In this document: piece by piece, positions 37,501-46,500 of the stretch
How the letters are laid out: every line of letters begins with the position of its first letter
Numbering within the stretch: position 1 is the stretch's first letter
Origin: Myxococcales bacterium
GTDB taxonomy: Bacteria; Myxococcota_A; Polyangia; Polyangiales; DASUME01
Reading direction: 5' to 3'
Assembly: GCA_047601445.1 (NCBI GenBank)
Contig: JASGJH010000001.1
Coordinates: 7,872,001-7,936,000, forward strand
Length of the DNA stretch: 64,000 bases
Program-made: the position numbers

Positions 37501-40500
37501 AGTGCAGCCGCACGCCCCAGCCGTAGAACACTCAGGAATCCCTGCCTGAGTCACCCTGGATAGGGTAGGTGGGCACCCCTGGCCGGCGTCTGAAGGTTTG
37601 CGGAAACCGCGCCCCGGGGCACACTCGCGGCGTGACCGGACTCCCGCTAGCTGCTCGTCTTTCTTCGGTGAAACCCTCGGCCACGGCGAGCTTTTCCCAG
37701 CGGGCCCAGGACCTGCGGGCGCGCGGCGTGGATGTGCTGCCATTCGGGGTCGGGGAACCAGATTTCGCGACTCCCACCCACGTGCTCGAGGCGGCCAAAC
37801 GGGCCCTCGACGACGGGGCCACCCGCTACACGAGCGTGCGCGGAATTCTCTCGCTGCGGGAGGCGATTTGCCGCGACTCGGAGATCCTGAGGGGGGGAAT
37901 TCGGCACCGGCCGGACGAGGTCGTGGTCTCCGTGGGGGCCAAGCACAGTCTGTTCAACCTGTGCTTCGTGCTGCTCGGACCGGGAGACGAAGCGGTGGTG
38001 CCCACGCCCTGTTGGGTGAGCTATCCGGAGCAGTGCACGCTCGCTGGTGCCACCCCGGTCCTGGTGGAAACGCGCGAGGAGGACGGTTTCCGGCTGACTC
38101 CCGCGGCCCTGGAGTCGGCGCTCAGCGAGCGCACGCGCGCGCTGTTCCTGTGCTCACCGTGCAACCCCACCGGGGCTGCGTACACGCGCGAGCAGCTGAG
38201 CGGAATCGCTGAAATCGCGCGGCGTCATCGCTTCTGGATCGTGGTGGACGAGATCTACGGCGGGCTTACTTATGCGGGCTTTCGCCAGCACTCGCTGCTG
38301 GAAGTGGCGCCGGACCTGCGCGACCGCGTGATCGTCGTCGATGGTGTGAGCAAGCGCTTCGCGATGACGGGTTTTCGCATCGGTTGGATGCTCGGGCCCA
38401 AGCACGTGGCGGAGGCCTGCGAGGTGATTCAGAGCCAGACCACCACGAGCCCAGCTGCGGTGGCGCAGCACGCCGCGATCGCGGCGCTCGAGGGGCCGAA
38501 GGAGCCCGTGGAGGCCATGCGTCAGGCCTTCGAGCGGCGCCGCGAGATCGCGGTGCAGGGACTCAATGCCATCCCTGGGCTGCGCTGTCGCGAGCCCGAA
38601 GGAGCGTTCTATGCCTTCTTCGACGTGCGCGCCTATCTGGGCCGCGAGTTGGGCGGACGGCGAATCGACGACGACTGGGCGCTGGCGGAGTACCTGCTGG
38701 AGGAGGCCCACTGTGCCTTCGTGGCCGGCAGTGCCTTCCTGGCGCCGGGCTACCTGCGCATGTCCTACGCGGCCAGCGAGGCCCAGATTCGCGAGGGGCT
38801 GAGCCGGCTCGCGCGGGCGCTCTCGCGCTGAACGTTCACTTGGATTCGGACGGGTCCTTGCCGGGGCCTCCGAAGAGTCGGCCGAGGAAGCTCGGGCGCT
38901 TCTCCACGCCGCCTGGCGCGGCCGGAGGCTGCGGCGGGAGCTTGGGCGGTGGCGCCTTCGGCTTGGCAGTGGCGACGACTTCTTCTTCGTCCTCCACCAC
39001 CTCGTCGAGGTCCATCTCGATCTCGAAGTCTTCGTCCGTGGAGGCGGCGGGGTTGGCCTGGCCGCCGGTCACCGAGTCGAACGCGCTGGTGTCGAACACG
39101 TTCGTGGGGTCGTCGCCAAGCTCGTCTTCGACGGGCAATTTGCCGGCATTTCGCACGGCGGCACTGGCTGCCAGGTCCTTGGGCACGCGAGGGGCGCCGA
39201 GGTCGCGCAGCAGGTCGTCGACGCTGTCTTGATCGGGATCGCTCATGGGGCCAGCGGGCACACTGCTGGGGCTGCTGGCCTCGTCGAACAGCGCGTCGAA
39301 CTCGGCGTCCGGGTCGCGCTCGCGATGGCCCGAAGGGGGCGGCATGCTCGGCTCGAGCTCATCGCTGAGTCCACCGAACGTGGCGGAAGTGAGCGGTGCT
39401 GCAGGCGTGCTCTCGGGACCGCTGGCGGCGGCGTCGAACAACGCGAGCACGGCGTCGGTCTCCTCGTCGTCGTCGGTCACCGCAGGAGCGGGGGGCTTGA
39501 TCGAGGGCTTCGTCGCGGCTTTGGCGGCGGGCTTCTCGGACTTGGCCGGCTTTTCGGACTTGGCGGGTCTTTCGGACCTGGCCGGCTTTTCGGACTTGGC
39601 GGGCCTCTCGGACTTGGCCGGCGTCGCAGGCAACACGCTCTTGGGCTTTCCCAGGCTGGTCTTGCTGGTGCTCGCGTCGGCGCCCGAGAGCGCGGCAAAC
39701 TCGGCTTCGAAGTCCGCGTCGGTGTCTTCGTCTAGGCTCGAATCGGGCGAAGGCGGATCCAGGGCGAAGGATCCGCTGCGCGGAGACGGCTCGTCGAGCG
39801 AGAGCTCTCCCGAGTGCGGGGCTGCTTGCTGCTGTACGGGCTCCGGCAGCACGATCTCTTCACTCCGCGGTGGCGCACCACGTGGTGGCGCTGCGGAAGC
39901 AGCAGGCGCGGCCGCAGGGGCCTCCGAAGCAGGTGCCACGGCGACGGGCTTGGGCGCTGGAGCTGGAGCGGGCGACTGCGCGACGCTCGCAGGTTCGGGC
40001 TGTGCCGGGCTCACGAGCTGTGGCTTCGGTTTGCTTGGGAGCGCGACCCTGGGTGCTGGCTCACGACGCAGCGGAACGGCGTTGCCGAGGTCTGCCAACA
40101 GTCTATCGACGTCTGTCAGCGAGCGCATGTCGCCGACGAGGATGCGCGCGAGCTGGAGCGCGTCGGCTCGCACCTTGCCGAGCGCGGCGAGCTGCGCGTC
40201 CAAGTCCGTAAAATCAAACCCCATGTGCGTATTGGGACACACCGCAGGGGGTTCGATCAAGGTCCGATGGGTAGGCCGTGCGTGAGGGTCAGCTCTGGCT
40301 CGAGCTCGTGGGCGGAGACCACCGCCAGGTCGAGCGAGCTCTGCTCCACGAGGGTACGCACATGGCGGCGCAGGGCGGACTGGGTGAGCAGTGCGCAAGG
40401 TCGGGGCGCCGCGTGAAAGGCCGAGCGGATGGCCTCTCCAATGTCTCGCGACAAGCCCGCGGGAAGTGCCAACCACTCGCTGCCACCCTCGCGTCGCAGG

Positions 40501-43500: not shown

Positions 43501-46500
43501 CGGAGCCATCCGGGGTCTGGGCCTGGCGGCCGAAGAACGAGCCCTCGGGGAACACCACGCAGACGCGCTTCTCGTTGAGTGCGCTGGGCACCCCATGCTC
43601 GTACATGGCGGCCCAACGGGGCTCCTGCTCGCGCAGATACTGGATGACCGCGGTCCAGGCGCGCTTGTCGACACCGGACGCGTGATCCTGGGCAGGTCGG
43701 GGCACCGCGACCAGGGCCGGCGTCGGCGCCGGTGGGGCGGCTGGGCGGGCCACCGCGAGTGCTGGAGCGGCCGTCGTCGCAGGGTGGGTGGCCGTGGGAT
43801 GCATGGGAACCACGGGCGCGGGATTCATGGCGCGCGGCGCGGGTGCGCCGGCCTCGCTCGTGGGGATGAAGCGCTGAAAGGGGTTGGCCTTGTCACCGCC
43901 AGGAGGGGTCGCCTGGGGAGCGCCCTGTGCGTTCGGTCCGCGTGGATTTTCGGAGATCGCGGGCGCGGGGGCGCTGCGCTGCACGTTTCCAGGCATATCC
44001 GCCGGTCGACCGGGGCCGCGTGGTGCGCCAGTGCCCGGCCCGGGACCGCCCTTTTCGAGCTCCTCGAGCCGTGCGATGAGCTGGCCCAGGTCGCGCAGCG
44101 GGGGCCGCGTCGCGAGCCGCACCGCGCCCATCTCGAGCGCGGTCTTCGGCGCCGACGAGCGTCCCACTTCTTCGACCAGCTCGGCCAATGCGGCGAACGC
44201 GCGCTCCAGCTCGAGGACCTCGCTGCGTGCACCGCTCTCGAGGGCGCGCGTGCGCTCGTCGGGCGGCAGATCCACCAGCTTCGGGTGGTCACCGGCCACC
44301 CGCAGCACGACCATGTCGCGCGCGAGGTCGAGCCACTGCTTGGCGAAATGCAGGAGATCGAGGCCCTGTCGCGCGAGGCCATCGATGATCTCGAGCGCTG
44401 CTTTGCCGTCGCCGCGCAGCACCGCCTCGTTGAGGGCGTGCACCTGCTCGCGATCCGCGATGCCGAGCTCCTCGGCGACCTGACTGCCCAACAGCTTGTC
44501 GCTGGAGAATGCCAGCACCTGGTCGAGCAAGGTGAGCGCGTCGCGCATGCTGCCAGCGGCCTCACGCGCCACCAGCGTGATGGCTGGCTGATCGGCTTCG
44601 ATCTGCTCTTTGGCCAGGATCTCACTCACGCGCGCGGCGATCACCGACTGCGGAATCAGGCGAAAGTCGTAGCGTTGGCAGCGCGAGCGAATGGTGACGG
44701 GGACCTTGTGGGCCTCGGTGGTGGCGAAGATGAACTTGACGTGGGCCGGGGGTTCCTCGAGCGTCTTCAAGAACGCGTTGAAGGCGCCCGTGGAGAGCAT
44801 GTGCACTTCGTCGACGATCACCACCTTGAAGCGGTCGCGCGCCGGACGAAACGGGATCGATTCTTGAAGCCGACGCACGTCTTCGACGCTGTTGTTCGAC
44901 GCGCCGTCCATCTCGATGACATCGAGGTCCACGCCGGCGGTGATCTGCACGCAAGCGTCGCACACATTGCAGGGGTCCGCGGTGGGACCACGCTCGCAGT
45001 TCAGCGCCTTGGCCAGGATGCGGGCGCTCGTGGTCTTGCCCACACCTCGCACGCCGGTGAACAGGAAGGCGTGGGCCACACGACCGCTCGCGATGGCGTT
45101 GCTCAGCGTCCGCGTGACGTGTTCCTGTCCCACCAGGTCCGCGAAGGTCTGGGGGCGATACTTTCGCGCGAGGACCGTGTAGCTCATGGCCGGCGGCGAC
45201 TGTAGCACCGTGGCCGGCCGGTTGCGCCTGGCATCTGTCCCGGCTCGTGGGCTACTCGCAGTGGCCCGGGCGATCGGCGCTGAAACAGCTGGCGTTACAA
45301 GGACAAAGGCTGGCGTCCCGGCACTGTAGGCCCGGATCGCAGTCGTCGTTGCTCCAGCAGGCGCCAGGCTCGAGGGCCAACTGCGTGTTGGCCCCGCACG
45401 TGCTCGGGCTCGGGCACTGGAGCCACTGGTAGGCGCAGCCGCCCTTGGGCTTCTTCACGCAGGTTGGCCCGCTCACGTGTTGGCCGTCGTCGCACGTGGA
45501 GGTGTCCCCGAGCAGCGTCTTCGCCGTCGTCGCAGCCGCCGCGTCGCAGCTGTCGCAGAGCTCCGGATCTTCACTGCAAGCGCCGTAGAACGCGATGCTG
45601 ACCCCGGCCCGGAAGGCCTCGCAGGTGTTGGGATAGGTGATTCCGTCGCAACCGCAGACCGGAAAGTACAGCGACGGGCAGAGCTGACTCTTGGGCTGAC
45701 ACAGCGCGGTGTCGTCGTTGTGACCGCAGGTGCCCAGGCGGAACACACAGAACATGCCCTCGCCGCAGTCCGAATTGGCGAGGCTGCAGCTGCCTTCGGG
45801 GTTGCACTGGTAGCTGCAGAATCCGTGTTGGTCCCGCTTGCACTCGGGCGGCTTACCGTCGGCGCAGTTGAACTCGTCGACCACGCCCGTGCTGTCGAAC
45901 GTAATCACGAACTCGCAGTCGTCGGCACCGCAGGCTGGCGGAGCGCCGCCGTCGGAGGGGGCGGGACACTCCGTGAACAGCCACTCGCAGTGGTCCTCGA
46001 CCCGCGTGCAGATCGGCGTGTGCACTTCGCCGTTTTCACAGGTGGCGGGCTGCGGGGTCGGTTCAGGACAGGTGTTGGCATTGCAGAACGGAAGCGTGCC
46101 CGCGTCCTCGTCGATCACGGCGCCGTCTTGCGGGTCCTGTCCCGCATCGGCCGCACCGCGAGAGCGTTCGACGCCCACCGAGAGGTCCTCGACGCAGCCG
46201 ATGGCGCCGAGCAGCGCGAGCCAGGCTCCGACATACGCGAGGCCCTGACGGCCGGAGCGCTTCGGGATCATCGCGTGAGTCCGCAGGCCTGGCGCACACG
46301 CGCAAGCAGGGGCGACTGTGGCGAGAGCTTGTCCAGTGTGGCTACTACCTCGGCGCCGTCGTGACCCAGCGCACAGCGCGCCAGGGCGTCGATGCCGATC
46401 CGCTCTTCTCGCAGGCTGCCTCTCGGGAAGCGCTGGCGATGTTCCTCCGCCTTGGCGAGCGCGCGCTTCGCGTCCCCGTCACGCAGGGCTTGCTGGGCGG

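Follow-up and report, generated by a model that had tools for sequence, protein, structure and literature searches.

Type III export genes dispersed one by one among housekeeping operons in a soil myxobacterium of the order Polyangiales

The genome of the soil myxobacterium under study (G000; an assembly of one 9.5 Mb contig) carries type III secretion core genes dispersed singly, as a preliminary description of this DNA had proposed. They occupy eight to nine places, mostly one gene apiece, and each is set among conserved operon neighbours that are mostly housekeeping genes. Type III systems are otherwise the textbook multi-protein machine encoded in one gene cluster. Judged from sequence, the set would comprise SctV, the membrane domain of SctU, SctR with a FliO-like protein, SctS, SctT, SctN, an SctL/FliH-like, an SctQ-like and a one-domain SctJ-like protein. 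We consider it likely that these genes represent a non-flagellar export system of the ‘Myxo’ kind that has neither needle nor secretin and was inherited vertically, its genes scattered one at a time to the 3' or 5' end of housekeeping operons.

The window (the whole 64,000-nucleotide stretch of the contig that was analysed) contains, on its minus strand, dnaX, ybaB, recR and sctV in the order previously noted. The first gene of the operon, dnaX (43277-45187, minus strand; DNA polymerase III gamma/tau), starts with the ATG at 45187 (MSYTVLARKYRPQTF) and encodes DNA_pol3_delta2, gamma3 and DnaX_C domains (PRK14965, 600 bits). It is followed by the gene for the nucleoid-associated protein YbaB/EbfC (42739-43062, minus strand; YbaB_DNA_bd 79 bits; TIGR00103 63 bits, cut-off 49.45), whose start codon we place at Met 56 of a longer ORF. 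The last two genes form a single frame of 824 codons (40257-42731, minus strand), with RecR at residues 3-193 and FHIPEP at residues 222-813. Its recR part (42141-42731, minus strand) lacks a stop of its own and reads through into sctV; a score of 219 bits on the equivalog TIGR00615 (cut-off 162.55, residues 3-193) identifies it as RecR. The sctV part (40257-42140, minus strand), 627 residues long when counted from an internal ATG at 42140, encodes the only FHIPEP export-gate protein of the whole genome (583 bits, cut-off 29.1).

Outside this operon, dnaJ-sctN, sctU-priA, sctS-sctT-hpt, sctR and the FliH-like gene were all found in G000 as the preliminary description had listed them. sctN lies 3' of dnaJ, beside dnaA-dnaN-recF; its product matches ATP-synt_ab and T3SS_ATPase_C with 256.9 and 61.8 bits and has intact motifs (Walker A APAGAGKT, Walker B VLLLMDS, and IGERGRE). 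SctR, SctS and SctT score 192.4 (FliP), 65.2 (Bac_export_3) and 35.2 bits (Bac_export_1) against cut-offs of 26.9, 25 and 27.8, with sctS-sctT standing 5' of hpt. The gene that overlaps sctR by 4 nt, earlier thought to resemble FliO, reaches 22.0 bits on that family, exactly at the cut-off of 22. The SctL/FliH-like protein scores 27-28 bits on FliH (cut-off 24.1), and those of relatives G039 and G013 score 81 and 74 bits. SctU, whose gene overlaps priA, also sits exactly at its cut-off (24.4 bits), with matches confined to positions 4-101 and 176-235 of the 335-position profile. The NP(T/E/S)H motif was not found in it, and the gene stops about 30 residues past the last membrane helix, where priA starts. 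In relatives, NPTH occurs at residue 261 in G039, and positions 1-333 of the profile are matched in most other families. The SctU of G000 is thus predicted to be the membrane domain alone, without the autocleaving NPTH domain.

Two further parts called for a revision of the earlier picture. The FliN-like gene does show the weak match reported (FliMN_C, 23.3 bits, cut-off 23.8), but this segment (31754-32107, minus strand) is the C-terminal, FliN/SpoA-like part of a split sctQ-like gene. The N-terminal, FliM-like part (32153-32743, minus strand; FliM PF02154, 14.7 bits, E 0.03) shares its frame and ends in a TGA at 32153-32155 that splits the gene in G000 only; in five relatives the gene is a single ORF of 324-343 residues, and the FliN/SpoA-like part was matched in six of nine same-genus genomes. 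The second revision concerns the claim of a bare gate with neither an SctJ ring nor any other. An HMM built from the SctJ-like genes of relatives found a diverged one-domain SctJ-like gene in G000 at E 3e-15 (contig positions 2456620-2457147), translationally coupled to the gene upstream. PF01514 gives only 12.6 bits on this gene, and the profile of the SctJ-like family matches PrgK at 2.4e-27. The predicted model has one alpha-beta-beta-alpha-beta domain followed by a C-terminal helix, with PrgK, FliF and EscJ as the top Foldseek matches; neither a first domain nor a lipobox cysteine was found in this protein. In other families, relatives have an SctJ lipoprotein complete with both domains, an SctU of full length that includes NPTH, and also an SctI-like gene, so that the ancestral dispersed system would have had the parts of the needle-less ‘Myxo’ systems. 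The reduction (truncated SctU, one-domain SctJ) is mainly a trait of this genus, with either one also seen in a few other families, and the split SctQ and the recR-sctV fusion are confined to G000.

The affiliation of the set was assessed through SctV. The G000 protein scores 555 bits on the hrcV model TIGR01399 (cut-off 692.25) and 520 bits on the FlhA model TIGR01398, also below cut-off. The hrcV score exceeded the FlhA score in every lone SctV tested, and two members of the same clade, L018 (743.6) and L035 (711.2), pass the TIGR01399 cut-off. In a tree rooted on eight flagellar FlhA sequences (a quick search under LG+G4, with deep-branch support of only 92-94), G000 falls within a clade of 27 lone-sctV entries (SH-aLRT 99) nested in the non-flagellar side (SH-aLRT 100); the clade splits off early on that side, apart from the flagellar clade. 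By scores and topology, we assign this SctV clade to the non-flagellar systems. No other type III gene was found near the lone sctV genes in the available flanks, which extend up to ~1.5 kb at some loci and up to 6 kb at others. A tblastn search of G000 with the flagellar proteins of G022 and G034 returned only the scattered SctN, SctR and SctV, with no FliF, FliG, hook or rod genes, in keeping with the earlier view of this bacterium as non-flagellated. Twelve of the 41 genomes, same-genus ones included, have a full-length FliF besides the dispersed set, and the FliF loci annotated in G022 and G034 are complete flagellar clusters that coexist with it.

The synteny first noted in relatives was confirmed and broadened. 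In a comparison made up mostly of metagenome bins, recR-sctV was kept at 21 of 30 loci, dnaJ-sctN at 25 of 30, sctU-priA at 15 of 18 non-flagellar loci and hpt adjoining sctS/T at 17 of 22; a kinase-like gene is followed by sctJ at 12 of 14. The first four of these contexts span many families of the order (probably Polyangiales). The recR-sctV adjacency is missing from a Polyangiaceae-type subclade, and there a FIST-domain gene lies directly 5' of sctV at two of three scanned loci. SctV and SctR were each detected in 38 of 41 genomes; G012, G016 and G036 (99-100% complete) have neither, and also have no SctN orthologue, SctU or SctJ. The other members of the two families to which these three belong have retained the set, which indicates two independent losses of it as a whole.

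Substitution rates revealed that sctV (dN/dS 0.19/0.21), sctN (0.11/0.13), sctR (0.20/0.18) and sctS (0.23/0.24) are under purifying selection. These rates bear on the proposal that the genes are decaying relics without joint function, kept only because they sit in essential operons where deletion is costly. SctU, SctT, SctQ and FliO indeed diverge fast (dN/dS 0.26-0.57, with SctU at just 33-51% identity within the genus), SctU and SctJ are truncated in the genus, and G026 has a TAG within sctV and no SctN orthologue. G000 itself has a frameshift between recR and sctV and a TGA in sctQ, and given these two lesions its own copy may be decaying. We nevertheless regard the relic proposal as unlikely: the values of 0.11-0.21 for SctV, SctN and SctR hold over a synonymous divergence of 0.65-1.5, the ATPase motifs are intact, every detectable part was lost jointly in two separate lineages with no piecemeal loss, and the clade has lasted across more than 20 families.

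The further parts of a complete injectisome were sought with family models, and the outcome agrees with the earlier statement that SctD, a needle and a dedicated secretin are lacking. No needle protein SctF (PF09392) exceeded the cut-off in five genomes, SctD (PF16693) had no match, and the best score on the secretin SctC model (TIGR02516) was 136.9 bits, short of the cut-off of 238.45. Neither an inner rod SctI nor any substrate was found in G000; full-length, below-threshold matches to PF17001 occur in G017 and G013. SctD, SctI, needle and secretin may be either absent from G000 or too diverged for family searches. In the assembled machine, SctR, SctS and SctT together with SctU and the SctV ring would form an inner-membrane gate, surrounded by a small SctJ ring, with SctN, SctL and SctQ docking on the cytoplasmic side. 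As needle, SctD and SctC were not found, proteins leaving the cytoplasm would most likely travel no farther than the periplasm or cell envelope. Stop and start codons overlap at recR/sctV (in relatives), sctU/priA, the kinase-like gene/sctJ and fliO/sctR, which suggests that expression may be constitutive, low-level and translationally coupled.

Rather than working alone, a gate of this composition might feed another envelope machine, perhaps a Tad/Kil-like pilus or a different secretin, and serve to kill prey on contact. This analogy draws on the M. xanthus T3SS*, described as working with a Tad-like system in predation (PMC10196010, PMC12075869); G000 has four secretin loci, and the lone clade, too, lies in the portion of the tree where the early-branching Myxococcota are placed. 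We find such a role quite improbable, however, since none of these secretins reaches the SctC model, no examined locus is linked to pilus or secretin genes, and co-transcription with housekeeping genes would argue against prey-induced regulation.

The dispersed set most resembles the ‘Myxo’ systems of Cystobacterineae, including the needle-less T3SS* and T3SS(2) clusters of M. xanthus, and its composition fits what Abby and Rocha (2012, PMC3459982) describe as the ‘short Myxo’ locus. Those systems likewise have no secretin or needle and consist of export apparatus, ATPase, a small inner SctJ ring and an SctI-like rod (here found in relatives only); FliO is common to both (PMC12403147), as are early branching in the non-flagellar tree and vertical inheritance within Myxococcota. 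The ‘Myxo’ systems, however, form single clusters of conserved gene order, whereas here almost all genes are isolated among housekeeping neighbours, the genus studied has truncated forms of SctU and SctJ, and the lone SctV proteins form a clade of their own, apart from the SctV of Archangium and Myxococcaceae, whose genes adjoin sctR and sctS. We read the set as the form that the needle-less, secretin-less ‘Myxo’ type III system takes in Polyangiales, with its genes dispersed singly. The flagellar export apparatus (FlhA, FlhB, FliPQR, FliO and FliHI) has homologous parts matched by the same Pfam families, but the lone SctV gets its better score from hrcV, not from FlhA, and stands outside the flagellar clade. 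The chlamydial type III genes are likewise spread over several loci, and constitutive expression has been proposed to relax selection for their clustering (PMC3459982). Each chlamydial locus, in contrast, still groups several type III genes, and together the loci encode an entire injectisome, secretin and needle included.

We found no description of gene-by-gene dispersal in the literature, and a dispersed system would escape detection because type III search tools depend on clustering. Type III systems of myxobacteria have been ascribed mainly to the order Myxococcales in one comparative study (PMC10196010). An order-wide, selectively maintained set tied to housekeeping genes would mean that clustering is not required for a type III machine. 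It would also offer a third early-branching lineage for reconstructing the origin of the injectisome from the flagellum, and it raises the testable question of what cargo a needle-less gate carries in free-living soil bacteria. A bolder extension, to which we give little credence, is that this constitutive, ring-poor, needle-less gate serves Polyangiales as a third general inner-membrane route beside Sec and Tat, its coupling to recR, priA, dnaJ by dnaA-dnaN-recF, and hpt making gate number track growth and the cell cycle.

At the recR-sctV junction, DNA alignment places a one-base gap in all 11 aligned relatives opposite an extra base in G000 (within 42150-42162, minus strand; GACGGAACG), which moves recR into the frame of sctV. 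At all 20 relatives' loci where recR lies upstream of sctV, RecR closes with ...GRAF(D/E)GRR(D/E)L and then a stop codon, and in eight of nine same-genus relatives the TGA of recR is overlapped by an ATG or GTG start. With one base deleted, G000 would again read GRREL, stop at TGA and show the ATGA overlap. Since the fusion stems from a single extra base absent from all 20 relatives, we attribute it either to an error of sequencing or assembly or to a recent change in this strain, and regard it as neither a conserved feature nor a design element. Its confinement to this assembly had been correctly anticipated; of the further suggestion that it is probably a one-base assembly error, the single base is borne out, and a change in the strain is retained here as the alternative. 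It is very unlikely that the fusion is real in this strain and yields a RecR-SctV protein, tethered to the membrane, that newly couples recombination repair to the export gate: despite the long open frame, a single contig whose other examined genes showed no frameshift in a non-systematic look, an extra base in a run of just two A's and a topology that would permit an N-terminal cytoplasmic fusion onto SctV, no relative is fused, the overlapping start codons speak for two coupled proteins, and the conserved RecR tail would be lost.

A low-complexity protein that matches no Pfam or NCBIfam family is encoded 29 nt 3' of sctV (38836-40227, minus strand). Its gene was present at eight of nine same-genus loci and at none in other families, with a dN/dS of 0.28-0.47; it may be a mere neighbour of sctV, and is at most a candidate member of the type III set.

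The genome under study (G000), a contig of 9.50 Mb at 66.3% G+C, has only one FHIPEP gene. This gene lies on the minus strand of the window, behind dnaX (43277-45187) and ybaB (42739-43062), within a frame of 824 codons (40257-42731, minus strand) whose first 193 residues are RecR (TIGR00615, 219 bits vs. a cut-off of 162.55) and whose residues 222-813 are the FHIPEP export-gate protein SctV (583 bits). Begun at the internal ATG at window position 42140, SctV would measure 627 aa. A search for terminator-like sites from dnaX to the end of sctV detected none.

We compared the SctV loci of G000 and 29 same-order relatives, nine of which belong to the same genus. 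In all 20 relatives having recR upstream, a stop codon closes RecR after GRAF(D/E)GRR(D/E)L, and all same-genus relatives but G006 (eight of nine) show a four-base overlap between the recR TGA and the start codon of sctV, which is ATG or GTG. A DNA alignment with 11 relatives revealed one extra base in the G000 junction, GACGGAACG; minus this base, the junction would give GRREL, TGA and a restored ATGA overlap. The fusion, described in the preliminary description as private to this assembly and probably a one-base assembly error, is indeed seen only in G000 (none of the 20 relatives) and amounts to one base, and that base is either an assembly error or genuine. Among the 17 public sequencing runs listed for this stretch, the share of sampled words contained was at most 0.04, and none of the listed runs containing it was of RNA. 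Whichever the origin of the base, the fusion is not conserved. Starting 29 nt past sctV, a minus-strand gene (window 38836-40227) encodes a protein rich in proline, alanine, serine, glutamate and lysine, with repeated KSEKPA units. It is present there in eight of the nine same-genus loci, has no family match and is absent at sctV in the loci of other families; the gene may encode a substrate or be unrelated.

The other type III genes listed earlier for G000 were recovered by Pfam. sctN (contig 5777773-5779056), with intact catalytic motifs, lies 30 nt past dnaJ, beside dnaA-dnaN-recF; sctU, ending at contig 7767267, overlaps priA by 4 nt, with def and fmt following; sctS and sctT (contig 4599173-4600228) are followed after 3 nt by hpt; sctR occupies contig 3300297-3300920 and the FliH-like gene contig 418520-419239. 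A 121-aa ORF overlapping the sctR start by 4 nt, which had been read by eye as FliO-like, reaches the FliO model at 22.0 bits, exactly its cut-off. In the NPTH and motif alignment (rows G000, G007, G004, G009, G039 and G035, plus an NPTH count), SctU of G000's own genus is without the switch domain. Some 8 kb separate sctV from an sctQ-like gene, with equal spacing in G004 and G003 (contig coordinates). In G000, one TGA divides it into a FliM-like N-terminal part (window 32153-32743) and, in the same frame, a C-terminal FliN-like part (window 31754-32107), and the same place holds a single ORF of 324-343 aa in five relatives. Adjoining it, the translated plus strand of window 30579-31734 shows a likely thymidylate kinase gene and a PDZ-looking lipoprotein; this would again put a type III gene next to a housekeeping gene of nucleotide or replication function.

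The gene contexts of this dispersed set are conserved far outside the genus, bearing out the synteny first noted: sctV immediately follows recR in 21 of 30 loci, G000 included, sctN directly follows dnaJ in 25 of 30, priA directly follows non-flagellar sctU in 15 of 18 (the 12 remaining loci of this comparison hold a flagellar flhB adjoining flhA or fliR), and hpt adjoins sctS/sctT in 17 of 22. Genes of the set are also missing together. SctV and SctR were each found in 38 of 41 genomes, and the three genomes without both (G012, G016 and G036, 99-100% complete) also have no SctN orthologue, no Bac_export_2 match and no SctJ match. Eight genomes of one genus (g8) in the phylum sample, among the matches listed, have RecR and no SctV. 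Other members of the two families concerned keep the dispersed set, so the set as a whole was lost twice, independently. With G007 and G004 as reference genomes, each vs. G000, dN/dS was 0.19 and 0.21 for sctV, 0.11 and 0.13 for sctN, 0.20 and 0.18 for sctR, 0.23 and 0.24 for sctS, 0.37 for sctT, 0.57 and 0.33 for sctU, 0.26-0.50 for sctQ, 0.36 and 0.44 for fliO, and 0.05-0.15 for the housekeeping neighbours recR, dnaJ, priA and hpt.

The claim that G000 lacks an SctJ ring gene did not hold. PF01514 yields nothing significant in this genome (best 12.6 bits) and only partial matches within its genus (21.6-32.9 bits). Among the relatives, it matches the flagellar FliF in 12 genomes (open frames of about 550 aa, >199 bits) and, in most other families, also a separate short SctJ-type gene, full-length at 53-101 bits; nine such ORFs, when translated, measure 252-271 aa. 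An HMM built from the relatives' SctJ-type sequences has exactly one match in G000 (E 3e-15), a gene at contig 2456620-2457147 encoding about 175 aa, in which a single domain stands between a signal peptide and a C-terminal membrane helix; the alignment shows the first SctJ domain to be absent in the own genus and in G033. Compared with solved structures, the family profile matches PrgK (2.4e-27), MxiJ, FliF and EscJ. An AlphaFold model with a mean pLDDT of 79, rising to about 90 in the core, has an alpha-beta-beta-alpha-beta domain, for which the best Foldseek matches were PrgK, FliF RBM2 and EscJ.

The sctJ start codon overlaps by 4 nt the stop of a kinase-like membrane protein gene (L278:4755-6623, contig 2454755-2456623), a pairing seen in 12 of 14 loci. 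This protein shares a common build with that of the gene upstream of sctS (L005:9789-11405, contig 4600789-4602405): in each, cytoplasmic domains (kinase-like or zinc ribbon) and a GYF domain are joined through one membrane helix to a C-terminal periplasmic domain, the latter being related between the two (31% identity, E 4e-07). The build resembles that of the gliding-motility proteins GltJ/AgmX. Both were considered as stand-ins for SctD, and no ring-building motif was found in either; they may be partners of the export gate. A membrane protein of 560 aa (contig 415902-417584, L007:4902-6584), which bears a signal peptide and whose periplasmic domain is conserved, was rejected as a new component. 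In three families, represented by G000, G039 and G013, its gene adjoins the FliH-like one, yet it does not co-occur with the type III set: G016 and G036, which have no type III genes, possess it, and it was not found in the system-bearing G015, G035 and G025.

The searches agreed with the earlier report that no needle, SctD, rod, hook or dedicated secretin gene was found in G000: SctF gave nothing over its cut-off in five genomes, SctD had no match, no secretin reached the SctC model (best 136.9 bits vs. 238.45), and G000 yielded no gene for a flagellar ring, rod or hook. An SctI-like gene of about 116 aa with a conserved C-terminus occurs in G017 (L283:89-439), where it adjoins a FliA-like sigma factor, and in G013 (L284:4112-4391), scoring 18.7-18.9 bits over the full profile, under the cut-off. 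An HMM made from these two had only a spurious 18-bit match inside another gene in G000, where the syntenic place (contig 1855390-1856109) keeps the FliA-like sigma factor and has a TPR-like ORF instead of the small gene.

The ancestral dispersed set, comprising a full SctU with NPTH, a two-domain SctJ, the SctI-like protein, SctRSTV, SctN, SctL, SctQ and FliO, agrees in its components with the needle-less, secretin-less 'Myxo' systems of Abby and Rocha (PMC3459982). Those systems are single clusters, whereas the dispersed set occupies eight to nine places. The own genus is further reduced, with a switch-less SctU and a one-domain SctJ. We infer the machine's working and its exported proteins. 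The two lesions, the extra junction base and the TGA in the sctQ-like gene, are private to G000 and both touch type III genes; an unsystematic look at other G000 genes noticed none comparable. As that check was unsystematic, real incipient decay of the system in this strain may be under way. Full-text literature searches found no published description of the dispersed arrangement, and supplementary tables may list the genes. Passages of the respective sources place myxobacterial type III systems mainly in the order Myxococcales (PMC10196010), give sctV and sctR in Polyangia only as present (PMC11509652) and report FliO in Myxococcota type III systems (PMC12403147).

Second SctV/SctN/SctR copies occur in some relatives, four same-genus species among them, and their reading as a clustered 'Myxo' system was dismissed: the two clusters annotated, in G022 (L210, G022:C3:764001-784000) and G034 (L208 and L209, G034:C1:3074001-3104000), are true flagellar ones, complete from fliF through flgG with flhF, flhG and fliA. 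Their FlhA passes the FlhA model, and every lone SctV tested, encoded without neighbouring type III genes, scores higher on hrcV. Since their flagellar gene clusters are complete, these myxobacterial lineages are probably flagellated, while G000 is not. Flagellar-type genes are also borne by the same-genus G002, G003, G005 and G006.

In a tree of 68 proteins rooted on eight of these FlhA sequences (quick search, LG+G4), the non-flagellar side forms one clade (SH-aLRT 100), as do the 27 lone SctV rows (SH-aLRT 99), which branch near its base beside other Myxococcota lineages (deep nodes 92-94). The nearest named records were bins labelled Sandaracinaceae, Polyangiales, Polyangiaceae and Labilithrix. 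No other type III genes were found in the flanks of lone sctV, scanned up to about 1.5 kb or up to 6 kb by locus set. In the phylum sample of 160 genomes, among the matches listed, recR-sctV adjacency appeared only in same-order genomes. At one locus (L024, G026:C4:7181-12034), recR matched in three different frames and sctV contains a TAG; no SctN orthologue was found in this 79% complete bin, so that either the assembly is poor or the system is being lost in this lineage. The adjacency is not universal, being missing from a 12-row Polyangiaceae-type subclade, and a FIST-domain gene lies upstream of sctV in two of the three loci of this type scanned. These sensor-like genes (L054:4788-5951, L087:4840-5961) directly precede the lone sctV, with no recR there, and the pair lies near ddl, a PP2C phosphatase gene and rpsA.
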